From the NCBI GenBank assembly GCA_030066295.1, contig JASJBX010000016.1, forward strand, positions 1 to 27,788: a DNA stretch of 27,788 nt, given 5' to 3'. The translations under genes and the position numbers were made by a program. Origin of the DNA: Crocosphaera sp. GTDB taxonomy: Bacteria > Cyanobacteriota > Cyanobacteriia > Cyanobacteriales > Microcystaceae. Positions within the stretch are counted from its first letter, which is position 1; each line of letters begins with the position of its first letter. Of this stretch, positions 1,286-11,595 are shown in pieces. A model generated the notes under the pieces. The model was not told where the DNA came from and searched no databases. It saw nothing but the letters and a program-made list of their open reading frames with translations.

Positions 1286-2800
1286 TTAGACTTTTTCAGT
1301 CTTGCCCATGTGGATATAATCATGACAGCTTTCGTGAACCGCTATTAGGTTCTTTAGCTTCCAGTTGTTGTGATTTCCATCAATATGATGGAGGTGTACT
1401 CGTTCCTCGGAGGTGAGTTTGAGTCCACAACATCCACATGAATGGTGTTGCTTTTTCAAGCATTTAGAGGTTGTTCCTTCGTAGAGCTTACTATTACGTT
1501 GGCTCCAATAAACTAAGTCACCGTCGTAGGGTGATTTTACTCCTTTGACAAGAACGTGACGATTTTCTTTATAGGGTATTGCTGGAAATGCCTTCTTGAC
1601 AAGTTCTGTTGCCGTGTGTCGGCTCAGTTTCTTTTCTTTATTAAAGACTTTGAAGGTTCTGTTGTTTAATCTCCATAAGGAGAAACGTGAACCGTCCATG
1701 TAGCAGTATCTGTGGTAGTTTCGCCATCCTCTAACTAAGGGGGCTAATTTATAAGCCTTGACTTTAGCACCATAATTCGAGCAGTTGACAATATCTTTGA
1801 CTTTCTTGCGAAATGCTTTGTAGTTGTCCTCTGATGGAACACACCTAAAGCTTCCGTTGGATTTTACTTTGAAGTGCCATCCGAGAAAATCAAATCCTTC
1901 TGTCGATTTGACTAGCTTAGTTTTACTTTCTTTGACCTTTAGCCCTCTTTCTGCCAAAAATTCTTTTATGTCCTTAAGTATCTTGCTTTCATCGTCTTCT
2001 GGTTTTAGGATGAGAACCATATCGTCTGCATAGCGGACTGATTTGTGGATGTTCTCTATGCCATCGAGAGCGATGTTGGCTAGTAGAGGACTTACCACTC
2101 CCCCTTGGGGGGTTCCTTGTTCTGGAAATTCAGGATTGACTCCTGATTTTAGGCATCTCCATAGTCCAAGTTTGATGGATTTTGGAGCGATAACCTTGTC
2201 CATGATCGAGGTGTGGTTTATCCTGTCGAAGCACTTTTCTATGTCCAGTTCGAGTATCCTTTTTCTATATCCTCTGCCTTGACGATTGAGGTTAGAAAAT
2301 AGAAATTTTTGGGCATCGTGTGCGGAGCGTCCAGGTCTGAACCCGTAACTCCTTTCGTGAAAGACTGCTTCATGTGCTGGTTCTAAGGCGTATTTTACAA
2401 GGCATTGCCATGCTCTGTCTGCCATAGTAGGAACCTTAAGTGTTCTAGTTGTTCCGTCCTTTTTTGGGATGGGTATTTCTCTAAGCTTGGAATGTTTCCA
2501 ATCGTGGGCTTCGAGTAACTTTTCTGCTAAGGCGAACCGTTGTTTGAAGTTTAGAAATTTAATTCCATCGACTCCTGCGGTTTTCTTTCCAGCGTTTAGT
2601 TGAGATATTTGTCGGACTGCGAGTAATCTAGCAGCTTTGGACTTTAGAATCAGTTTCTGTAGATTCCTTGCTCGTCGTGTGTCTTCTGCTTGAATGGCTT
2701 TAAACAATCTTCTTTGGAGACGAAAGAGATTCTTACGGAGTTTTTTCCAGGGAATGCTCTTCCAGAGTTCACTAAAATCTTTGATTTTGTGTCTAACCAT
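1286..2800 (-). CDS. Group II intron-encoded protein: reverse transcriptase / maturase (X domain) / HNH endonuclease
   Basis: RT blocks: IPIPKKDGTTRTL, SYGFRPGRSAHDA, LELDIEKCFDRINH, GTPQGGVVSPLLANIAL, YADD (RYADDMVLIL), FDFLGWHF. X domain: LVRGWRNYHRYC. C-terminal Cys pairs plus HNH: HLHHIDGNHNNW...AVHESCH. I prefer the ATG at 2798-2800 (MVRHKIKDFSELWKSIPWKK...). It has GAGGTGA just upstream and gives the usual IEP N-terminus. The track ORF extends in frame to 2980. Confidence 0.9.
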   Translation of the reverse strand: MVRHKIKDFSELWKSIPWKKLRKNLFRLQRRLFKAIQAEDTRRARNLQKLILKSKAARLLAVRQISQLNAGKKTAGVDGIKFLNFKQRFALAEKLLEAHDWKHSKLREIPIPKKDGTTRTLKVPTMADRAWQCLVKYALEPAHEAVFHERSYGFRPGRSAHDAQKFLFSNLNRQGRGYRKRILELDIEKCFDRINHTSIMDKVIAPKSIKLGLWRCLKSGVNPEFPEQGTPQGGVVSPLLANIALDGIENIHKSVRYADDMVLILKPEDDESKILKDIKEFLAERGLKVKESKTKLVKSTEGFDFLGWHFKVKSNGSFRCVPSEDNYKAFRKKVKDIVNCSNYGAKVKAYKLAPLVRGWRNYHRYCYMDGSRFSLWRLNNRTFKVFNKEKKLSRHTATELVKKAFPAIPYKENRHVLVKGVKSPYDGDLVYWSQRNSKLYEGTTSKCLKKQHHSCGCCGLKLTSEERVHLHHIDGNHNNWKLKNLIAVHESCHDYIHMGKTEKV

Positions 2801-3881
2801 GTTCACCTCGGTTAATCGTTTTCTATTTGCCTCGAAGCAATTACGCTTCGTCCTACCCGAATCTAGAGGTTTCCGCATCTCGTCTTGCCTACTCAGGGGT
2901 TCGACCTTTTCCTGAGACTCTAGATTCGTTTTTATTCGTTCCGTTTGTTCGATTGTTTTGTCCCTATTAGATGTAGCCACTTCGCCTATCAGAAACCCTT
3001 GGCTATGTCACTCTCGTATCAATAAGTTGACGGGTTACATTACTCCGATGGGGTCAGAATCCTTATTGGATGCTGCTTTCTGCCCAGCAATAAGACGCTT
3101 TTCTAGGCTCTGTTTCATCATGGGGACTCCTTATTAACGCCAGTGTCACCTAGCAGTTGGTGTCTGGTTGCGTCCTGATGCCAGCTTCAGCCTCCCGAAT
3201 TCCGAGTCGGGTCACTGTGGCCAGGTCAAGAGTCAATCGTAGCCTTCGACGGGAGGGCTTGCACCTCCATCAAACAAACAGTTATTCAGACTGTAGATTT
3301 TACTTTTGACTTTGTTATTCCTTTGAGGATTGCCTGTGAGGGCTTTGTTTTTCCTCTTGGGTCAATGGGTCATTATTCTACTTTTCTCCTTTTGGGGAGT
3401 GTCTGAACCTTGGCTATACCCCTCTAGTTTCTAGAGGCTCCTGCCAAGAACGAATCGCACTAACACATTGCATAGTTAATTATTGCTAATTGCCTTCTGT
3501 AACATTTCGTAACGTTACTTTCTTTCTAGCATATACGGTTTTGGGGCATTTGAAGAGGCCAGATAAGTTTAAGCGTCTCTATCCCGTCTTCGAGGAGGAT
3601 GATAATTCCCTACCTAATACAGCAAATTAAGCTGAAACAGTCCACTAGATTGTTTAACGAAGAATCTGATGAAATGCGATCGCTTCTTTACATAAGAGTT
3701 TAGTTTGATAACGATAAAATACAAGAACATTCTCTAATTCTTTCTATTTTCTACCCTATTTACATTTCTTTAACTTCTGCAAAAGATTAAGCGTTCTTTA
3801 AATTTTTAGGGTTTATGATTCTATTTTCAAGTATTGTCGTTATCATTACACACATATAACCTTACTCCATAGCAAACAGTC

Positions 3882-4304
3882 ATGAATCTATCAATAAGAA
3901 AGCCATATAATTTATTGGCTTATGTAACAACTGCTACTTTTTTCTTAAGTATGACTCTAAGTTCCTCCGCATCCACTAGCTCGTTGAAAAAGTATGACAA
4001 TATCAATATGAAACAATTCAACGAATGTATAAAACCGCCCAGTTCCAATGGTTCAGAACAAGGTTGGGCTGATTATCACGGCGAAAATCAAGGTAAAGTT
4101 GAGTTAAAAGTTAGGAATCAACCCATGATTTCTGATGGTACAGTTGCAGCTACCTTAAACTACAAATTTGAACCCTCAGAAAAATTATTAACCCTAGAAA
4201 TTAAGGAAAAAACCTCATTTATGTTCGGTATGATTCAAGCATCAGACGAACAAATTTGGGAAGGATTTGATGGGTTAGTTCAACAATGTCGTACCTACGG
4301 CTAG
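3882..4304 (+). CDS. Hypothetical small secreted protein
   Basis: 140-aa ORF with a signal-peptide-like N-terminus (hydrophobic LLAYVTTATFFLSMTLSSSAS). It has two Cys residues (positions 49 and 136). An intrinsic terminator follows. No family recognised. Confidence 0.55.
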   Translation: MNLSIRKPYNLLAYVTTATFFLSMTLSSSASTSSLKKYDNINMKQFNECIKPPSSNGSEQGWADYHGENQGKVELKVRNQPMISDGTVAATLNYKFEPSEKLLTLEIKEKTSFMFGMIQASDEQIWEGFDGLVQQCRTYG

Positions 4305-4465: not shown

Positions 4466-7258
4466 ATGCGCTGTTTAAACTGCCACCTTGATAACCTTCC
4501 CGAAACCACCCAACTTTGTCCCCATTGTGGGGCGCAAGTTATCGCTTTGTTACAGGAAGTGTTACCCCAAGGAACTCAACTGCGATCGCATACATATTGT
4601 CTTGATGATGCCATGGGAAAAGGCAGTTTTGGCATTACCTATCGCGCCCATCATACCCTCTTAAAGAATCCTGTCGCTATTAAAGAGTTTTATCCTGTCG
4701 AATATGTCTCCCGAAATATTGAAACCAAACTCTTAATTATTCCTGAAAAACATCGGGACGCATATCAAAGAAATCTCTATCGTTTTTTGGAAGAAGGAAA
4801 AATATTAGCTAAGTTAGATCATCCCAATGTTGTTAAAGTCAGAGACTTGTTTGAAGAACGAGATACAGCTTATATTGTCATGGACTTGGTAGAAGGAAAA
4901 ACCCTATTACAAGAACTAGAAAATCAACCCAATCAAAAACTATCGACCGACAGAATAGAAAACCTAATTGGACAATTAGTTAATGCCTTAACTGCCATTC
5001 ATGAAGCCGGAATATATCATCTGGATTTGAAACCAGAAAATATGCTCTTAACCCCTGAAAATCAATTGATTTTAATTGACTTTGGGGCAGCTACATTAGC
5101 CAGTGATGCTAAACGAAAGAAAACCCGTTCTTTTACCGAATGTTATGCAGCCCCCGAAATAATGTCAGGGGGAGAAATAGGACCCCAAAGCGATCTCTTT
5201 GAAGTCGGAATGATCCTCCATGAACTATTAACAGGAAAATTACCCCCTCCAGCCATGACCCGTGTTTTAGAAACGGATACTTGGCAGCCTCAAGGGTTAG
5301 ATTATCCTTGGGATATGTTAATTGTTGATGCGTTAAGAATTCAGAGGACTTATCGCAGTTCAACAGTAGATCAATGGTGGGAAATGCGAAAAGAAAAAAA
5401 AGAAAATGTTATTAAAATTGAACAAAAAAGTATAGAAAATTTACAAGGAAAATTTGCCTTACCCCTATTACAACAACAAGGAATGGCTCAGAAGTTAGGG
5501 CGTGGTTGTATTAGAAAAGTGATCCCAGTTACTCAAAATCAAGTCTTAGTTTTAGAAGCAGGAGGTGCATCATTATTCAATTTTAAAACTCAAGTTACCC
5601 ATTGGGAAATTGACTGCCCTAATTCCTGTGGAGCTATCAGTGAAAATAAAAATATATTAGCTCTCGTTTGGCAACAAAATATCTACTTATGGGATTTAAC
5701 TCAAGGAACTTTTTTAAGGCAATTACAAGGTCATTCAAAGAAAATTACCGATCTTGCTTTTAATAAAGATGGTTCTTTGTTACTCTCAGGAAGCCTCGAC
5801 GAAACCTTAATTATCTGGGAAATTAAAACAGGGAAAAAACGTCACGAATTATCCGATCCCATGGGACAAATAACCGCCGTTGCCTTTAGTGCAGATAATC
5901 AATTTATTGCCTCGGGTTGCCATACGGGAATAGTAAGAATTTGGGGGGCTATATCTGGACAGGAATGGCGATGCTTAGAAGGTCACAAAATGGCAGTGGA
6001 AAGCTTAATTTTTAGCTCCGATAGTAAAGTATTGGCTTCAGGAAGCCGAGATCAAACCATTCGTTTATGGGATGTTACTTCAGGGAAATTTCAACAAGTA
6101 TTAGAAGGTCATCAAGACTGGGTAACAGGGTTAAGTTTTGATAAAAATGCAGAACATTTAGCCTCTGCATCGGCCATTAATGATAAAACCATTCGTATTT
6201 GGTCCATTGCACAACGACAACCCATTCAACACCTACAAGGACACAATAACAGTATTAAAGCGATCGCCTTTTGTCCCGATGATCGTTATCTGATCTCAGC
6301 AGCATCCGATAATACCATCCGTCTCTGGGATGGAGAAACCGGAACAGCGATCGAACAACTACAACACCATACCAATTGGGTGTATAGTGTGGCCTGTAGT
6401 GCCGATGGTCGGTGGGTGGCGATCGCCTACAGTGATGGGACTGTCCATCTTTGGGATGTCATAAAACAACGGGAAGTCAGTTGTCTCGAAGGTCATGAAA
6501 GTGCAGTTTCTAGTCTGGCTTTTTGTCCGGATAGTCAACATTTGGTATCCGGCAGTTGGGATGGAACCCTCAGAGTTTGGGATATTCACACAGGAAAATG
6601 TAAACGCATTTTACAAGGTCATCAACACTGGGTCAGCAGTGTTGCAGTCAGTCCTAATGGTCAATGGGTTGCTTCGGGAAGTTGGGACAAAACCGTTTGT
6701 CTTTGGGAGATAAGTCACAGTTGGCCTAATTTTAAAGGAAGTAAACCCACTCGTATTTTACTGGGTCATTTAGAAGATATTGAAGGGGTTGCTTTTAGTC
6801 CGGATAATCAATTAATGGCTAGTTGTAGTAATGATAAAACCATTAAAATCTGGGAAGTTGTATCTGGTCAACAAGTCCAACAATTAGGAGGTCATCAATA
6901 TAGCGTTGAAGATGTGGTTTTTAGTCCCGATGGTCAATTTATTGTTTCCGTTAGTCGGGATAAAACGGTGAGAGTTTGGCACATTATTTCGGGTAAGGAA
7001 ATTCATCGTTTTCAAGGTCATACTAATTATGTTAATTGTGTGGCATTTTGTTTAAATGGTCGTTATTTGGCCTCAGGAGGAAAAGATAAAATGATTGCTA
7101 TTTGGGATCTCATTTCAGGGGAATTAACCCAATTAATTCAAGGTCATACTAATAGTATTAATAGTATTGCTTTTACTGGGGATGGTTCCTATTTAGTGTC
7201 TGGGGATAATGATGGTGTGGTGAGACTATGGACGTTACAGCTAGGAAGTGAGGGTTAG
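4466..7258 (+). CDS. Ser/Thr protein kinase with an N-terminal zinc ribbon and about 14 C-terminal WD40 repeats
   Basis: Zinc ribbon: CLNC...CPHC. Hanks kinase motifs: GKGSFGITY, VAIKEF, HLDLKPEN (non-RD, catalytic Asp present), DFG, AAPE. From about residue 375 there are repeated LxGH...(V/I)xxxAFSPDG..(L/I)ASGSxDxT(I/V)R(L/I)W(D/E) units, roughly 14 in number, enough for two propellers. Confidence 0.9.
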   Translation: MRCLNCHLDNLPETTQLCPHCGAQVIALLQEVLPQGTQLRSHTYCLDDAMGKGSFGITYRAHHTLLKNPVAIKEFYPVEYVSRNIETKLLIIPEKHRDAYQRNLYRFLEEGKILAKLDHPNVVKVRDLFEERDTAYIVMDLVEGKTLLQELENQPNQKLSTDRIENLIGQLVNALTAIHEAGIYHLDLKPENMLLTPENQLILIDFGAATLASDAKRKKTRSFTECYAAPEIMSGGEIGPQSDLFEVGMILHELLTGKLPPPAMTRVLETDTWQPQGLDYPWDMLIVDALRIQRTYRSSTVDQWWEMRKEKKENVIKIEQKSIENLQGKFALPLLQQQGMAQKLGRGCIRKVIPVTQNQVLVLEAGGASLFNFKTQVTHWEIDCPNSCGAISENKNILALVWQQNIYLWDLTQGTFLRQLQGHSKKITDLAFNKDGSLLLSGSLDETLIIWEIKTGKKRHELSDPMGQITAVAFSADNQFIASGCHTGIVRIWGAISGQEWRCLEGHKMAVESLIFSSDSKVLASGSRDQTIRLWDVTSGKFQQVLEGHQDWVTGLSFDKNAEHLASASAINDKTIRIWSIAQRQPIQHLQGHNNSIKAIAFCPDDRYLISAASDNTIRLWDGETGTAIEQLQHHTNWVYSVACSADGRWVAIAYSDGTVHLWDVIKQREVSCLEGHESAVSSLAFCPDSQHLVSGSWDGTLRVWDIHTGKCKRILQGHQHWVSSVAVSPNGQWVASGSWDKTVCLWEISHSWPNFKGSKPTRILLGHLEDIEGVAFSPDNQLMASCSNDKTIKIWEVVSGQQVQQLGGHQYSVEDVVFSPDGQFIVSVSRDKTVRVWHIISGKEIHRFQGHTNYVNCVAFCLNGRYLASGGKDKMIAIWDLISGELTQLIQGHTNSINSIAFTGDGSYLVSGDNDGVVRLWTLQLGSEG

Positions 7259-7260
7259 AA

Positions 7261-7295
7261 GGCAGGAGGCAGGAGAAAGGAGGCAGGAGGCAGGA
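7261..7295. repeat. Heptanucleotide tandem repeat (GGCAGGA)2-GAAAGGA-(GGCAGGA)2, STRR-like
   Basis: Direct reading of 7261-7295 shows five 7-nt units, four identical. The repeat starts 3 nt after the kinase stop and ends 2 nt before a perfect TATAAT (7298-7303). Confidence 0.8.
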
Positions 7296-7330
7296 GTTAT
7301 AATAAGTTTACTGGTAAATAGTCAAAAATA

Positions 7331-7756
7331 ATGGAAACTTTTACAACTGCGAAAATTCTAGAGTTTGTGGTAGGTGCAGTGATTACAATGGGGGTAGAAA
7401 ATCTCCCAACTGCCACTAAAAAACTGTATCAAACTATTCGTAACCGCTTGCAAAATAAACCCGTTGCAAGCACAGCAATCAGTGAAATTGAAGAAAATAA
7501 CTCAACTGACCAAATTCCCAATTTAGCCCCTTTCTTGGACGTGGAAATGTTGTCTGATGAGACGTTTAAACAAGAGGTGCAGCAATTAGCAAAAGAAGCC
7601 ATGAATCAAGACAAAGAAACCATTAATATTCATGTTGCTAAAGCTGAAAAAAGTACGGTTGTGGGGAAGCAAAAATCAGACAATCTCAACAATTATAATG
7701 CAGAAGAAATTAACAATATTGGCACACAGAATGTTATTAACGTAAAAAAGGACTAG
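7331..7756 (+). CDS. 141-aa ORF; probable N-terminal module of the downstream STAND protein (zero-frame product)
   Basis: ATG at 7331. N-terminal hydrophobic helix AKILEFVVGAVITMGV, an acidic and helical middle, and an N/Q/G/V/I-rich tail (...NNYNAEEINNIGTQNVINVKKD). It ends GTA AAA AAG GAC TAG, overlapping the open -1 frame of the NB-ARC ORF. Confidence 0.6.
   Translation: METFTTAKILEFVVGAVITMGVENLPTATKKLYQTIRNRLQNKPVASTAISEIEENNSTDQIPNLAPFLDVEMLSDETFKQEVQQLAKEAMNQDKETINIHVAKAEKSTVVGKQKSDNLNNYNAEEINNIGTQNVINVKKD
7744..7750 (+). other. Candidate -1 ribosomal frameshift (slippery) heptamer A_AAA_AAG, or the site of a 1-nt A-tract indel
   Basis: In the zero frame of ORF 7331..7756 the codons are GT[A AAA AAG] GAC TAG. 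The -1 frame from 7750 (GGA CTA GAG...) is the NB-ARC ORF frame, which is open from 7741. Confidence 0.45.
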
Positions 7757-7788
7757 AGGAAAATGATGTACAACGACTCATAGAATTT

Positions 7789-10515
7789 TTGCAGGAAAAA
7801 CCTGATAGAAAAGTAACCTTATCATCCAGTGTCATTACCTCACCTCCTCTCGTTAAACCTTGGGTGGATAGGTTAGAAGAAATGACCACTATTCAAAGTT
7901 GGATTGATGATGCTGACGTTAATTTAATCGGGATTGTTGGGTTAGGTGGAATCGGAAAATCTGCCTTGGTTGCTTATTTTTATAACAATTTTTTTAACAA
8001 AAACGTAGAAACGTTTCATGAAACGTTTCTACAAAACAAATTTTGGGCTGATGTTAGTTTAAATCCTGATTTTGCTGCTTTTGCTGAATCCATCATTAAG
8101 GGGTTATCAGGAACAGTAAATGCGACGGGTGACGTTAATATTTTAATTGCTGATTTATTCAGAATTTTACATAACAATCGTTGTTTATTAGTGGTGGATA
8201 ATATTGAAACTTTATTAGATGAATCAGGAGAATGGCAAAGCGAAAATTATGCTACATTTTTTCAGCGTTGGAAGCAACAAGGACACACCAGTATTTTATT
8301 GTTAACTACAAGGGATAAACCTAATCTCTATCGAGGAGACAATAATTGGTATTCTCTGGGACGTTTTACGGTTGATGAAGGTAAAACACTATTAAAAGGA
8401 TTACAAATTGAAGGAAGCGACCAAGACCTAGAAAATTTAGTTACTCAAATAGATGGTCATGCTTTGACCTTAAGATTAGTAGCATCATACCTCAAAGAAT
8501 ATTGTGATAGTCAACTAAATCAAGTGAAAGAATTGGGTTTAGATGAATTTGAGTTAATTTACAACGAAGCATCAGGACTCCATCGCAATAAAACCGATGC
8601 ACGATTATCATGGATATTAGAACAACATTTAGACCGTTTAAGCGAGAAAAAAAGACAATTTTTAGTTAATTTATCTGTCTATCGTCAACCCTTTGACGTA
8701 ACAGCAGCAACGGGAATGTATATCAATGCTAATTTTGCAGAAGGAGAGACAGAAGAAAACATCAAACCCATAGAAGTAAAAAAAGAATTACAAAATCTGC
8801 TCCATCGTTCCTTATTATCCCGTAGTAATAAAAAAGGTTATGAATGTCCCCTATTACTTAAACCCTATTTACAGAAAAAATATTCGGACTTAACTAACTG
8901 TCATCAAACAGCAATTAATTATTATTTATCTGTTGTTCCCCCCAAACCCTGGAAAACCCTGGATGAGATACAAGGATATTTAGAGATTTTTTATCATTAT
9001 TATCAACTCGGAGAATATGACACAGCGTTTGATTATTTACATGATATTGATCAGTTTATGACTTTCCAGGGATATTATCATCTTCTAGTAGAATATTATT
9101 CAGATTTAATCAGGGGATATAAGAAAAATAAAAAGAAAGATAATAGAAATTATGCACATTCACTTAATAACTTAGGTGATACTTACAATTTACTGGGACA
9201 ATATAAACAGGCCATAGAATACTTTCAACAGTCCTTAGCTATCTTTACAGAAATCGGCGATAGAGAAGGTGAAGCTCGTTCCTATACTAATTTGGGGAAT
9301 GCTTACAATTACTTAAAGAAATATCAACAAGCTATAGAATATTCTCAGCAGTCCTTAACTATTTATAAAGAAATTGGTGAGCATAAAAGCAAAGCGAATT
9401 GCTACAATAATTTAGGCATTACCTATGAATCTCTTAGAGACTATGAACAGTCTATTCAATACTACGAGAAGTCTTTAGCTATTGCAATTGAAACGGATAA
9501 CCCGAATATACAGGAAAAATCTTATAATAATTTGGGTTTAGTTTACAACTCTCTAGGAAAATATCAATCAGCGATAGAATACTATGAGAAGTCTTTAGCT
9601 ATCTGTACAGAATTAGGCGATCGTCCTGGTGAAGCTTCTTCTTATATTAATTTGGGTTCTACTTACTATGAATTGCAACAATATGAACAAGCAATAGAAT
9701 GCTATCAACATTCTTTAGCTATCGATATAGAAATTAACAATCATCTAGGTAAAGGTGATTCTTATCTTGGTTTAGGTAATGCTTATTATTCCCTGAAACA
9801 ATATGAAAAAGCGATACAATACCATCAACAGTATTTAGATATCTCTACAGACATTAGCAATCGCAACGGGGAAGCAATTGTCTATCATAAATTGGGTTCT
9901 GCTTACAATTCCCTGGGACAATATCAACAAGCAATAGAATACTATCAACAATCCTTAGCTATCAAAAAAGAAATCGGCAATAGAAAGGGTGAAGCAATTT
10001 CCTATAATAAATTGGGTTCTGCTTACAATTCCTTGGGACAATATCAACAAGCCATAGAATACCATCAATTTGCATTACAATTATTCCAACAATTAGGGAA
10101 TCCTCATGATATTATTAGCTGTCTTGAAAATTTAGGTAAGACTTATTTCTGCTTAAAACAATACTCCCAAGCAAGAGACTATTATCAAGCAACCCTAGAA
10201 ATTAAACGAAGATTAGAAGACAAAGAAGGAGAAGCAAGAACATTAATAACTCTCAGTAAAATCTATTCTGAAATGGGAAAAGTAAAAGAAGGTTATGCTT
10301 TATGTTTTCAAGGTAGTCAGATATTACAAGAATTAGATTTACCCCTCTCAGAAATGCCATATCCTCAGTGGTTCAAATCTTTGATACAATTTGGACAACA
10401 GAGTAAACTGCAACTGATTTTATGTTTTGTTTTTGGAATCATTGCTTTTCCCTTTGCTTTAGTGGGTTTTATTTTATTATTAATATGGAGAAGGATTAAA
10501 GGAATGATTGATTAG
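7789..10515 (+). CDS. NB-ARC (STAND/AP-ATPase, NLR-like) NTPase with about 10 TPR repeats and a C-terminal transmembrane helix
   Basis: Walker A: GIVGLGGIGKS (7939-7962 covers GLGGIGKS). Walker B-like: CLLVVDNIE. Also LLLTTRD and a GLPL-like IDGHALTL. Then about ten 40-aa TPR units (NLGxxYxxLGxYxxAIEYxxxSLAI...). The last ~30 aa are hydrophobic followed by RRIK. The track start is TTG at 7789. The only ATG before the P-loop is at 7882. The frame is open from 7741, so the true N-terminus may come from 7331 via the frameshift. Confidence 0.9.
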   Translation: MQEKPDRKVTLSSSVITSPPLVKPWVDRLEEMTTIQSWIDDADVNLIGIVGLGGIGKSALVAYFYNNFFNKNVETFHETFLQNKFWADVSLNPDFAAFAESIIKGLSGTVNATGDVNILIADLFRILHNNRCLLVVDNIETLLDESGEWQSENYATFFQRWKQQGHTSILLLTTRDKPNLYRGDNNWYSLGRFTVDEGKTLLKGLQIEGSDQDLENLVTQIDGHALTLRLVASYLKEYCDSQLNQVKELGLDEFELIYNEASGLHRNKTDARLSWILEQHLDRLSEKKRQFLVNLSVYRQPFDVTAATGMYINANFAEGETEENIKPIEVKKELQNLLHRSLLSRSNKKGYECPLLLKPYLQKKYSDLTNCHQTAINYYLSVVPPKPWKTLDEIQGYLEIFYHYYQLGEYDTAFDYLHDIDQFMTFQGYYHLLVEYYSDLIRGYKKNKKKDNRNYAHSLNNLGDTYNLLGQYKQAIEYFQQSLAIFTEIGDREGEARSYTNLGNAYNYLKKYQQAIEYSQQSLTIYKEIGEHKSKANCYNNLGITYESLRDYEQSIQYYEKSLAIAIETDNPNIQEKSYNNLGLVYNSLGKYQSAIEYYEKSLAICTELGDRPGEASSYINLGSTYYELQQYEQAIECYQHSLAIDIEINNHLGKGDSYLGLGNAYYSLKQYEKAIQYHQQYLDISTDISNRNGEAIVYHKLGSAYNSLGQYQQAIEYYQQSLAIKKEIGNRKGEAISYNKLGSAYNSLGQYQQAIEYHQFALQLFQQLGNPHDIISCLENLGKTYFCLKQYSQARDYYQATLEIKRRLEDKEGEARTLITLSKIYSEMGKVKEGYALCFQGSQILQELDLPLSEMPYPQWFKSLIQFGQQSKLQLILCFVFGIIAFPFALVGFILLLIWRRIKGMID
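9151..10354 (+). repeat. Array of about ten 120-nt (40-codon) TPR-encoding units with visible DNA-level periodicity
   Basis: Recurrent ...aatttgggt..gcttacaat..ctgggacaatatcaacaagc.atagaatac.atcaaca.tccttagctat... Units 9841-9960 and 9961-10080 are nearly identical over about 80 nt. Confidence 0.7.
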
Positions 10516-10697
10516 GGTTGAGGAATTTCTAAATCTCGGCAAATTTTGCGGACTAAAAACTCATTAATTTCTCGATGTCTTGGAATGGCTGACACTTTTT
10601 GAACTTTTCGATTAACATACATTGTATGATTTCCTCTTTCTCGAAGAAATTCGCATCTATTGACTTCTAAATGCTTAATTAAATCTCTTCTTTTCAT
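10512..10697 (-). CDS. hicA: HicA-family toxin (mRNA interferase)
   Basis: 61 aa with the pattern MKRRDLIKHLE.N.C.FLRERGNHTMY...S.IPRHREI...L.RKICRDLEIP, typical of cyanobacterial HicA/YcfA proteins. Its start overlaps the upstream hicB-like stop (ATGA). Confidence 0.75.
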   Translation of the reverse strand: MKRRDLIKHLEVNRCEFLRERGNHTMYVNRKVQKVSAIPRHREINEFLVRKICRDLEIPQP

Positions 10698-10912
10698 TAT
10701 CCCGATACAGTTAGGGTTTCTCTAATAACATCCATTCCTTGAATAGATTCTTCTGCTAACATTCGATTAGATTCTAATACTAACTCGATTGCTTCTAATA
10801 AATTACTTCTCGCTTCCTCTAGGGTTTTTCCTTGAGTGTTTGCACCTGGTAATTCTTCAACAAAAGCAATATAACCTTCTGGAACCTTTTGAAAAATTGC
10901 TGTTAACCGCAT
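10697..10912 (-). CDS. hicB: HicB-family antitoxin (short form, no DNA-binding domain)
   Basis: 71 aa, MRLTAIFQKVPEGYIAFVEELPGANTQGKTLEEARSNLLEAIELVLE, a HicB/UPF0150-like N-terminal fold pattern. Translationally coupled to hicA. Confidence 0.7.
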   Translation of the reverse strand: MRLTAIFQKVPEGYIAFVEELPGANTQGKTLEEARSNLLEAIELVLESNRMLAEESIQGMDVIRETLTVSG

Positions 10913-10996: not shown

Positions 10997-11119
10997 ATGA
11001 CCCTTACTTTTAATCGAGACACTTACGCAAATTTACTTGCTAAATATCAACCTAAAATTATCGAAACTGAAGAAGAAAACGAACAAGCGCACCACAAAGC
11101 GGATCTCTTTCTCCAATAA
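10997..11119 (+). pseudogene. Remnant of a HigA/XRE-type antitoxin gene (only about 31 N-terminal codons retained)
   Basis: AAGGAG (10981-10986) precedes the ATG at 10997. MTLTFNRDTYANLLAKYQPKIIETEEENEQA matches the conserved N-terminus I recall for cyanobacterial HigA-like HTH antitoxins. The reading then runs antisense into the hepT remnant and stops after 40 codons, before any HTH. Confidence 0.45.
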
Positions 11120-11255
11120 TAATGATTTGATATAAAACAGATGACTGGGTTTTTTCATCCTCTAAAAAATCATCTTGATTCATTTCTCTTGTAAAAGCTA
11201 AAATCAACCGACAAGCTTTAACTATATCTAAAATAATTTCTTTATCTCTTGACAT
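11058..11255 (-). pseudogene. hepT: Truncated HepT (DUF86/HEPN) toxin gene lacking the Rx4-6H catalytic motif
   Basis: MSRDKEIILDIVKACRLILAFTREMNQDDFLEDEKTQSSVLYQIIIIGE is the DUF86 N-terminal half, up to the conserved IIGE. The following 16 codons (RDPLCGALVRFLLQFR) are unrelated, and no RxxxxH motif is present. The start overlaps the mntA stop, as in intact MntA/HepT pairs. Confidence 0.6.
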
Positions 11256-11595
11256 AAATAACCTCATTATTATCTAAAATATTGTGACGACGAATCCAAT
11301 TATCACTTTTTTCTATGAATTTCTTTGTTACTATATCCACTGATCGATTTAATAACTTTGTAACTTCCTGTTCTAACGTTTCTAAATCTAAAAGACTTAT
11401 ATGATTGTTAGCTTCAAAACTAACCAAAATATCAATATCGCTGTTCAAGTTAAAATCATCCCGTAAAATTGAACCAAATAAAGCTAATTCAACAATTCCC
11501 CATTGATGACAAAATTGTTTAATTATTTCTAATTCAACCCCTAACCGTTCTTTTATTTTAGGATTAACTTCTAGTTGATAATTTACCTTGACCAT
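11242..11595 (-). CDS. mntA: MNT-type nucleotidyltransferase antitoxin (MntA)
   Basis: 117 aa with the nucleotidyltransferase signature LFGSILRDDFNLNSDIDILV (GS...D.D). Located immediately upstream of, and overlapping, the DUF86 gene. Confidence 0.8.
   Translation of the reverse strand: MVKVNYQLEVNPKIKERLGVELEIIKQFCHQWGIVELALFGSILRDDFNLNSDIDILVSFEANNHISLLDLETLEQEVTKLLNRSVDIVTKKFIEKSDNWIRRHNILDNNEVIYVKR

Follow-up and report, generated by a model that had tools for sequence, protein, structure and literature searches.

Effector–NLR pairs of the Bell/BASS type, described in cyanobacteria and actinobacteria, consist of a small protein with a helical bundle of ~100 aa, encoded directly 5' of a collinear NB-ARC or NACHT gene with TPR or WD repeats. 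The small protein starts with a hydrophobic helix that has an acidic residue at position 2–3 and ends in a tail rich in N/Q/G, and a motif of ~25 aa recurs at the effector C-terminus and the NLR N-terminus as the defining feature of such pairs (Dyrka et al. 2020; bioRxiv 10.1101/2020.01.06.895854). That study describes overlaps between the paired genes; frameshifting, readthrough and recoding are not mentioned in it (bioRxiv 10.1101/2020.01.06.895854). Fungal HET-S/NWD2 and E. coli Bab/Agp likewise combine a free effector with a motif-bearing sensor (bioRxiv 10.1101/2024.11.07.622273), while all-in-one NLRs join effector, NOD and repeat modules in a single protein.

Products of different length can be obtained from one mRNA by programmed −1 frameshifting. 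In E. coli dnaX (tau/gamma) and in the orfA–orfB fusions of IS3/IS911, tRNA-Lys re-pairs on an A_AAA_AAG heptamer (PMC4066793), and an upstream SD-like element together with a downstream hairpin or pseudoknot accompanies a high-frequency shift. In phage lambda gpG/gpGT, a short upstream ORF carries the heptamer close to its 3' terminus, and the short product is the N-terminal part of the fusion. No stimulatory element has been described for this site, and the short product is made in a large fixed excess of about 30:1 over the fusion (PMC5009743). Few chromosomal, non-mobile bacterial genes depend on programmed −1 frameshifting. Retroviral gag-pol, which uses −1 frameshifting in some viruses and stop-codon readthrough in others, yields an abundant short and a rare long product.

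Here, we analysed a window of 27,788 nucleotides from Crocosphaera sp. (contig JASJBX010000016.1), in which a 141-aa ORF (ORF1, 7331–7756; all features given here are on the plus strand) lies directly 5' of a collinear NB-ARC/TPR ORF. The original prediction had proposed, as one of three readings, that a free N-module and a fused NLR arise here by programmed recoding, and comparison of the orthologous loci favoured this reading. Based on these comparisons, ORF1 and the NB-ARC/TPR gene very probably constitute one recoded translational unit, joined by a conserved programmed −1 slip.

The zero-frame product of ORF1 resembles a Bell-type effector with a tail. Residues 1–109 (7331–7657) form a helical-bundle domain, modelled by AF2 as six helices with pLDDT above 90, which is homologous to Bell domains: hhalign of the ORF1 family against plasmid-encoded Bell/BASS9 proteins, a set that includes proteins bearing the published BASS9 motif, gave a probability of 98.2% (A1 versus A5; E 5.6e-14). 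ORF1 begins with MET..ILEFVVGAVITMGV; its N-terminal helix is hydrophobic and has the acidic residue Glu at position 2. Residues 110–141 (7658–7753) make up a disordered Asn/Ile/Gly/Gln-rich tail (AF2 pLDDT below 50; N+Q+G+V+I 50% versus 33% in the head), which sits where the BASS motif sits in relatives. This makes the tail a candidate amyloid-type signalling motif, and by analogy with these relatives we infer that it may act in amyloid templating. The tail matched no BASS class of the published table. Searches of ORF1 with Pfam, NCBIfam and PADLOC returned nothing. Comparison with the PDB, by Foldseek of the AF2 model and by a sequence profile, yielded no significant hit among solved effector domains, so that a structural relationship to Bab, HeLo or MLKL could not be demonstrated. 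An ORF1 profile scan of genomes and metagenomes retrieved only the Crocosphaera loci already in our set. The 13 stand-alone ORF1 homologues are 131–141 aa long, and ORF1 is under purifying selection (pN/pS 0.34).

The NB-ARC and TPR modules named in the original prediction for the downstream part were recovered by Pfam. They comprise an NB-ARC NTPase domain (7882–8424; PF00931, E 2.3e-9; P-loop GLGGIGKS at 7939) and a TPR array as the sensor part (9142–10344; TPR_12, E 9e-92, and related families). A C-terminal hydrophobic helix is seen in the sequence (LILCFVFGIIAFPFALVGFILLLIW, 10414–10488) and aligns with that of P0047, a distant relative that naturally combines the N-module, NB-ARC domain, TPR array and C-terminal helix in a single ORF. 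The predicted product of the window, 1061 aa in length, is colinear with P0047 over its whole length (E 1e-92). P0047 is the only single-ORF case, and ORF1 and the NLR occupy two frames in 14 of 14 variants; among 5.8 billion sequences, close relatives yielded no fused protein, only stand-alone ORF1s of 131–141 aa. A tblastn search of plasmids with P0024 found nothing.

Re-reading of the sequence and translation bore out the junction anatomy as originally described. The 3' end of ORF1 reads GTA AAA AAG GAC TAG (7742–7756), with a slippery A_AAA_AAG at 7744–7750 whose first base is codon position 3 of ORF1 (X_XXY_YYZ phasing) and with the zero-frame stop TAG (7754–7756) one codon 3' of it. The NB-ARC/TPR frame is −1 relative to ORF1 and open from 7741, after a TAA (7738–7740) that closes it upstream and confines a productive shift to 7741–7756; in one variant, L022, the open stretch of the −1 frame begins at the heptamer itself. 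A −1 slip would give ...NVINVKK-GLEENDVQRLIEFLQEKPDRKV..., with the predicted trans-frame peptide ...INVKKGLEENDVQR, and a product of ORF1 residues 1–140 plus 921 aa from the −1 frame (7750–10515). Upstream of ORF1, a TATAAT (7298–7303) may be the −10 box of an ORF1–NLR transcript, and its context GTTATAATAA (GTTACAATAA in L013) is kept ~28 nt 5' of the ORF1 ATG in the window, L008, L009, L013 and L015. A consensus scan detected no full promoter for this transcript, and a scan of the window found neither a terminator nor a promoter on the plus strand between ORF1 and the NLR ORF. As to the neighbourhood, the upstream kinase–WD40 gene starts at an ATG of its own, and it carries no recoding signal. 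Small ORFs nearby are unrelated to ORF1: from their translations, we take window positions 3882–4304 to encode a secreted protein and the ORFs at 7405–7806 of L008 and 7507–7932 of L013 to encode HigA-type antitoxins.

The heptamer as such does not exceed chance, with 30 copies of AAAAAAG in the window versus 21 ± 4 expected. What goes beyond chance is where it lies, how it is phased and that it is conserved: of the 17 copies inside genes, just 2 have slippery phasing. Each of the 14 distinct junction variants retains an in-phase slippery heptamer (12 from Crocosphaera, L029 and L030), which are related sequences and therefore stand for fewer independent events. Both forms found, A_AAA_AAG in nine variants and G_GGA_AAG in five, rank among the top three −1 heptamers for efficiency in E. 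coli (PMC4066793). In each of the 14, the zero-frame stop follows 0–1 codon after the heptamer and the −1 frame continues into the NLR; a single ORF with A7, one of the arrangements originally considered for orthologs, was never seen. While the residues flanking the heptamer vary (V/L/T/E-K-K, L-G-K), the X base stays, and it is supplied by rare codons (GTA 14%, ACA 16%, CTA 10%, TTG 13%, CTG 8%), so the motif is conserved among homologues with its synonymous positions included. G_GGA_AAG is also the slippery motif of lambda gpG/gpGT. The slipperiness of AAG in E. coli rests on the lack of a tRNA-Lys(CUU), a lack that Crocosphaera may or may not share; no tRNA genes were found in the window.

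The two stimulatory elements of dnaX and IS3/IS911 were not found here, in line with the caveat that accompanied the original prediction. RNAalifold gave 0 conserved pairs for a hairpin or pseudoknot 3' of the heptamer, single-sequence folding z-scores ranged from −1.4 to +2.1, and inspection of the upstream region revealed no SD-like motif. Such elements are usual at −1 frameshift sites without being obligatory; as none is detectable, the slip is probably inefficient, in the percent range or below. An SD-like GAGGAAAATG at 7757–7766 with a 7-codon mini-ORF was considered separately and attributed to conserved overlapping codons of the NLR frame (ENDVQRLIE).

Between the heptamer and the NB-ARC domain lies a linker of 44 codons (7750–7881), which is constrained in the NLR frame. 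Its pN/pS is 0.42 in this frame versus 1.39 in the other two, equalling the constraint on ORF1 and on the NLR body (0.34–0.50); it contains 0 stops in the NLR frame versus 3–7 per sequence in the other frames, and its indels are of 3 and 30 nt, both multiples of three; across variants it is 44–54 codons long. A conserved start is absent from it. The annotated start, a TTG at 7789–7791, recurs in no other variant (TGG in L008, L009 and L013; L015 aligns differently), a GTG at 7864 is present between this TTG and the first ATG of the frame, and in 4 of the 12 fully analysed variants (L009, L015, L023 and L024) the linker lacks ATG, GTG and TTG altogether. The divergent relative L030 has no start before the P-loop, and the gene caller began inside its GGVGKS. 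Likewise, comparison of the orthologs showed neither a start nor an RBS of the NB-ARC ORF to be conserved 5' of the linker, which is itself conserved. At the level of comparative sequence analysis, the linker is thereby shown to be an overlapping −1 ORF which is constrained as coding sequence and translated, and which lacks its own start codon.

These data bear directly on the possibility of two ordinary adjacent genes, in which the NLR would be initiated at ATG 7882 or TTG 7789 and the heptamer and open frame would be incidental. Such an arrangement would fit the separate genes annotated by gene callers, the missing stimulatory structure and the frequency of AAAAAAG in the AT-rich DNA of this region. 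In addition, ATG 7882 (7882–7884), placed 19 codons 5' of the P-loop as originally noted, is kept in 12 of 12 Crocosphaera variants, the aligned residue being Ile in L030 and Ala in P0047. Incidental overlap nevertheless leaves unexplained why the codons before this ATG are under frame-specific purifying selection, why the TTG is limited to the lineage of the window, and why rare codons preserve the heptamer at synonymous positions while the site swaps between two top-ranked slippery forms. We therefore consider two independently initiated genes improbable. ATG 7882 could still serve as a secondary internal start within the recoded unit, and an NLR with a bare N-terminus would then be an additional or even the predominant product.

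A slip of RNA polymerase, which would drop one A from the A6 tract so that some mRNAs encode the fusion directly, has in its favour that 7744–7749 is a homopolymer and that such realignment is known in some bacterial genes and IS elements (PMC5009743). In five variants, the same place and phase are occupied by GGGAAAG, with three G and three A in place of the homopolymer. A tract of six A is also shorter than those known to slip efficiently. Moreover, the conserved X_XXY_YYZ phasing matters for tRNA re-pairing and not for polymerase slippage, and we regard a transcriptional origin of the fusion as very unlikely.

Inactivation of an all-in-one NLR by a frameshift, a phase-variable A-tract or an assembly error, each considered for this site before, can be dismissed as highly implausible even though the single-ORF relative P0047 exists and some copies have decayed (L030 is truncated after the NB-ARC domain and L037 is fragmented), since the identical A6 junction recurs without change in three MAG assemblies and four independent read sets, the same arrangement, with the non-homopolymeric GGGAAAG, is present in the isolate C. 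chwakensis CCY0110 and in an independent re-assembly of it, no A7 or A5 variant occurs at any locus, no fused protein was found in the sequences searched, and the NLR ORFs are intact (877–926 aa from the conserved ATG) and under purifying selection (pN/pS 0.34–0.50) in lineages 66–87% identical.

Under programmed −1 frameshifting, most ribosomes would stop at TAG 7754–7756 and release the free 141-aa Bell-type effector with its disordered Asn-rich tail. A minority would slip by −1 on A_AAA_AAG, tRNA-Lys re-pairing from AAG to AAA, and would read through the linker into the NB-ARC–TPR–TM sensor to produce the 1061-aa effector–sensor fusion. The frameshift may thereby hold free effector at a fixed excess relative to the sensor, and may also provide the sensor with the tail motif of the effector, which canonical Bell/BASS–NLR pairs encode once more at the N-terminus of the NLR. 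Ligand-driven oligomerisation of the fusion could then nucleate or recruit free effector, and the cell would be killed or arrested.

In its layout and its lack of a detectable stimulator, the locus resembles lambda gpG/gpGT. As there, the short product and the N-terminus of the fusion would be the same polypeptide, so that both would bind the same partners; unlike the viral assembly chaperone, the fusion here would contain a putative cellular NTPase sensor, ~920 aa of NB-ARC–TPR. Heptamer, phasing and the predicted tRNA-Lys re-pairing are as in dnaX and IS3/IS911; in dnaX the shift shortens the product, whereas here it would extend it. With gag-pol, the locus would share the logic of a single mRNA yielding an abundant short product and a rare long fusion, and it has no homology to it. 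The Bell-homologous domain and the adjacent collinear NB-ARC/TPR gene agree with Bell/BASS–NLR pairs, from which the locus differs in the slippery site that links the ORFs, in the lack of a conserved NLR start and in the lack of a duplicated motif. Local alignments of the tail with the N-terminal 80 aa of the NLR frame scored 15–24, within the range of shuffles, compared to 46–48 (z > 5) for the positive controls L038 and L040. A search with a profile of '...VNF' tails for NLRs that match it at the N-terminus retrieved nothing but C-terminal fragments of these small proteins themselves. In relatives with an independently started NLR, the tail motif is present a second time (z > 5), whereas in the window and in recoding-type relatives it is not. 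The predicted fusion has the effector–NOD–repeat order of all-in-one NLRs such as P0047. In contrast to these and to HET-S/NWD2 and Bab/Agp, both architectures are predicted to arise from one locus by recoding.

In Nostoc and Acaryochloris relatives, the NLR lies in frame behind a UGA stop that is followed by a hairpin, and we infer that they use leaky UGA readthrough. Selenocysteine insertion at this UGA seems unlikely because Sec decoding is generally not known from cyanobacteria. Whether recoding is a family-wide strategy of cyanobacterial Bell–NLR systems appears evenly balanced to us. If so, a sensor with neither its own start nor its own motif would be produced solely by extending the effector. 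Crocosphaera and its relatives would do this through −1 frameshifting, Nostoc PCC 7120 and Acaryochloris plasmids through leaky UGA readthrough with the help of a conserved hairpin; the effector-to-sensor ratio would be fixed as in gag-pol, and the rare fusion would be the nucleus for polymerisation of free effector after the TPR array senses its trigger.

Our literature search found no earlier description of programmed −1 frameshifting in bacterial STAND/NLR immune or cell-death sensors, in agreement with what had been supposed at the outset. If the proposed recoding is true, it would explain the odd or non-canonical starts of many annotated cyanobacterial NLR genes (the PGAP start is TTG here; in relatives it is ATT, ATA or ATC), and annotation would systematically miss the true N-terminus of such sensors. 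Synonymous mutations in the heptamer would offer a handle on how effector:sensor stoichiometry controls activation. Finally, the locus would add to the two-gene amyloid pairs and the all-in-one proteins a third NLR architecture, with a single mRNA as the source of both.

Rechecking of the window sequence showed that the small upstream gene ORF1 (7331-7756, plus strand; 141 aa) ends in GTA AAA AAG GAC TAG, as the original prediction had read it, and that the first base of the heptamer AAAAAAG (7744-7750) is the third position of an ORF1 codon, giving the X_XXY_YYZ phasing for a -1 slip. The NB-ARC/TPR sensor gene (NLR) lies in the -1 frame relative to ORF1, open from 7741 and preceded by a TAA at 7738-7740. 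This frame contains a TTG at 7789 and a GTG at 7864, and has no ATG until position 7882, 19 codons upstream of the P-loop GLGGIGKS. A -1 slip is predicted to yield a product of 1061 aa, in which ...NVINVKK is joined to GLEENDVQRL.... Pfam confirmed the NB-ARC domain and a long TPR array in the NLR and returned no match for ORF1. AAAAAAG occurs 30 times in the window (40% G+C; 21 ± 4 expected), and by itself the heptamer means little in DNA of this composition; however, of the 17 copies inside ORFs, only 2 are in the slippery phase. The only other in-phase A_AAA_AAG inside a window ORF lies at 2459-2465 (minus strand), at codon 171 of 565 of the ORF at 1286-2980 (minus strand).

Alignment of orthologous loci, the check that the original prediction had proposed, revealed that the two-frame layout and the heptamer are kept in all 12 distinct junction variants. 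These were obtained by fetching the DNA around ORF1 homologues (ORF1 identity down to 65%) and represent a modest number of independent evolutionary events. All 13 ORF1 homologues are stand-alone proteins of 131-141 aa, and no protein spanning the ORF1-NLR junction was found among 5.8 billion sequences. In every variant, the NLR frame is -1 with an overlap of 10-43 nt with the ORF1 stop, an in-phase heptamer lies 0-1 codon upstream of this stop (A_AAA_AAG in seven, G_GGA_AAG in five), and the -1 frame continues into the NLR. The residues at the site vary (VKKD, LKKD, VKKE, TKKD, EKK, VKK, LGKE), with the heptamer-completing base invariably retained. This base comes from rare codons, namely GTA (14% of Val codons), ACA (16% of Thr) and, in the Leu variants, CTA, TTG and CTG (10%, 13% and 8% of Leu), and the A-site codon is always AAG (20% of Lys codons). 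Among -1 heptamers tested in E. coli, the highest efficiencies belong to C_CCA_AAG, G_GGA_AAG and A_AAA_AAG (Sharma et al. 2014, PMC4066793).

For distant family members with tails ending in K-K or G-K, DNA came from two loci. In L029 (protein P0024), the ORF closes with GAA AAA AAG TAA and the -1 frame is open over the 10 codons present on the contig, while in L030 (P0015, 42% identical) it closes with CTG GGA AAG TAG and the -1 frame enters NB-ARC. The tails of P0016, P0024, P0025, P0027, P0028, P0032, P0074 and P0023 read ...EKK, EKKS, EKKL, EKKP, EKKK or ...VGKD, as would be expected if A_AAA_AAG or G_GGA_AAG closed their ORFs; P0024, the sole member among them with DNA, fits. Other family members have the tail ...VNF, which resembles a motif in Table S2 of Dyrka et al.

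The linker (44-54 codons from the heptamer to the conserved ATG) had a pN/pS of 0.42 in the NLR frame versus 1.39 in each other frame across the 12 variants, a constraint comparable to those of ORF1 (0.34) and the NLR body (0.34-0.50). Its NLR frame is free of stops in all 12 sequences, whereas the other frames contain 3-7 per sequence, and its length differences are 3 and 30 nt. At the position of the window TTG (7789), the close relatives L008, L009 and L013 carry TGG, and TTG is found there in none of the other variants. The linkers of four of the 12 variants (L009, L015, L023 and L024) are devoid of ATG, GTG and TTG, and L030 has no canonical start upstream of the P-loop, the gene caller having placed its start within GGVGKS. 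Because canonical starts are lacking in these loci, the linker, and in L030 also the NTPase, is reachable only from ORF1. Independent initiation at ATG 7882 may provide an additional route to the NLR, and its Met is retained in 12 of 12 Crocosphaera variants (Ile in L030, Ala in the homologue P0047), but such a start leaves the constraint upstream of the ATG unexplained. In L030 (5865-6700; Crocosphaera-associated MAG GCA_029979845.1), the NLR behind G_GGA_AAG ends after NB-ARC, at 320 codons. The short ORF that comes next has a CxxC...C motif (KQYHTCKNCGRVF) and looks like what is left of a transposase, and this NLR copy is probably in decay.

Transcriptional slippage at the junction would not need the observed codon phasing; it is unlikely at an A6 run and could hardly occur at GGGAAAG. 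The original prediction had also considered a phase-variable A-tract or a pseudogene. Both are contradicted, the former by the absence of tract-length variants among the loci compared and by the non-homopolymeric GGGAAAG form, the latter by NLR ORFs that are intact (877-926 aa) and under constraint in lineages 66-87% identical. A sequencing error at the A-tract, its third alternative, conflicts with the same A6 junction recurring across three MAG assemblies and four independent read sets. It also conflicts with the GGGAAAG form, which is carried by C. chwakensis CCY0110, an isolate, and by its independent re-assembly.

As already noted in the original prediction, neither a conserved downstream RNA structure (RNAalifold, 0 pairs; z-scores -1.4 to +2.1) nor an SD-like element upstream of the heptamer was found. 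Because no stimulators were found, the site resembles the lambda G/GT shift, which is unstimulated, operates at a low level and gives its products at ~30:1 (PMC5009743). No plus-strand terminator or promoter was found between ORF1 and the NLR. A conserved TATAAT, a candidate -10 box, precedes ORF1 by ~28 nt, and both genes likely form one transcription unit.

In an AF2 model, ORF1 residues 1-109 form a six-helix bundle (pLDDT above 90) and residues 110-141 are disordered, with N, I, G, Q and V making up 50% of the tail versus 33% of the head. A profile search of 1.84 billion representatives with a cut-off of E <= 0.001 gave 61 matches, almost all 71-181 aa in length. One much longer match, P0047 (658 aa), carries the N-module in frame with NB-ARC, TPR and a C-terminal hydrophobic helix in a single protein; the predicted trans-frame product aligns colinearly with it (E 1e-92), and the fusion is therefore a natural architecture. 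A partial protein from a 2.4-kb contig of a Crocosphaera MAG (P0013, 266 aa) runs in frame from N-module residues 1-102 straight into the NLR TPR (...QTVIPKPWTNRDEIQGYLEIF...), without tail, slip site or NB-ARC, and reflects either a deletion that arose naturally or a chimeric assembly.

In a tblastn search of plasmids, the finished genomes of Nostoc PCC 7120, Pseudanabaena and Acaryochloris yielded relatives, and these matched the Crocosphaera family in profile-profile comparison (98.2% probability, E 5.6e-14). Several of the relatives have the tail MTQNxSDNAKGWQTKVEGGTAYI, which is motif class bass_09; in Table S2 of Dyrka et al. 2020 (bioRxiv 10.1101/2020.01.06.895854), proteins of this class are Bell-domain effectors with an NLR partner. 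Based on this match to bass_09-bearing relatives, ORF1 is identified as a Bell-type effector. Canonical Bell/BASS pairs are defined by duplication of the motif on the NLR, as in the relatives L038 and L040 (scores 46-48, z > 5), whose NLRs have their own GTG or ATG start. In contrast, the NLRs of the window and of the relatives with the putative recoding arrangement lack a second copy (scores 15-24, within shuffles). Another family architecture is seen in L039 (3495-4451, A. marina pREB4; WP_012167821.1, 318 aa), where a Bell domain and most of a BASS9-type motif (...NAKGWQTKVEGGVAYIGEIH) run in frame into an unrelated C-terminal region of ~180 aa.

In five finished plasmid loci, L031 (4415-4470; Nostoc PCC 7120 pCC7120gamma, NC_003267.1) and L032, L033, L036 and L041 (Acaryochloris plasmids), ORF1 ends with TGA CTA, with the NLR continuing in frame right behind the TGA. 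All five lack ATG, GTG and TTG upstream of the P-loop; in four of them, PGAP assigned ATT, ATA or ATC as the start. L035 (3909-3914; A. marina S15 plasmid, NZ_CP064925.1) shares the in-frame layout with TGAGTG instead, and could use termination-reinitiation in place of or besides readthrough. A 5-bp hairpin 8 nt downstream of the UGA keeps standard pairing (Watson-Crick or G-U) in each of the six sequences and includes one compensatory pair (C-G in three, U-A in three). No tail motif was found on the NLR side of these loci. Leaky, programmed UGA readthrough is the simplest reading suggested by these few, partly related loci.

Within NB-ARC, a hypervariable insertion spot (7985-8035) lies between ...FYNNF and KFWADVS, at a position matched in L008, L009, L013, L015, L024, L025 and L030. 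In the window, a perfect 13-bp palindrome (8004-8033) encodes the insert, NKNVETFHETFLQN, and in addition scores terminator-like on the minus strand; relatives carry Pro/Thr/Ser-rich repeats (SPPTLPTPPTLPTL, SPTSPASPASPTSPASPS) or almost nothing (STHQ). Upstream, 72 nt before ORF1, a 930-aa protein with zinc-ribbon, Ser/Thr kinase domain and WD40 repeats (4466-7258) is syntenic in most Crocosphaera loci (L001-L014); it is absent in L015 and L030 and therefore not an obligatory partner. Between this gene and ORF1 lies a tandem heptamer repeat (AGGCAGG, 5.3 copies; 7260-7296), with related GGAGTCA-type repeats at the equivalent place in L009 and L013; these resemble cyanobacterial short tandem repeated sequences. 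The NLR is situated within a toxin-antitoxin-rich island (10512-10912 and 11058-11595, minus strand): its stop overlaps by 4 nt an opposite-strand HicA/HicB-like toxin-antitoxin pair, and a nucleotidyltransferase/HEPN-like pair comes next.

These comparisons show a conserved slippery site at the end of ORF1 and a -1 continuation that is translated without a start codon. From this we infer that a low, fixed share of ribosomes would produce a Bell-tail-linker-NB-ARC-TPR-TM protein, with free Bell-tail protein in excess over this fusion. Recoding would stand in for the duplicated motif of canonical pairs, so the sensor would bear the effector's own tail, and on activation and oligomerisation the sensor could nucleate or recruit free effector. 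The data agree equally well with a model in which free ORF1 inhibits the fusion or serves as its decoy. The Bell/BASS paper reports short gene distances and overlaps and does not mention frameshift, readthrough, recoding or start codons (bioRxiv 10.1101/2020.01.06.895854), and a full-text literature search for frameshifting with NLR, NB-ARC, STAND, antiphage or cyanobacteria returned nothing relevant. X_XXY_YYZ slippage and the Bell-NLR system have each been described before; what appears new is that the two are combined, and that frameshifting and readthrough apparently take each other's place. UGA readthrough, if real, would give the plasmid-borne relatives the same product pair as the Crocosphaera frameshift.
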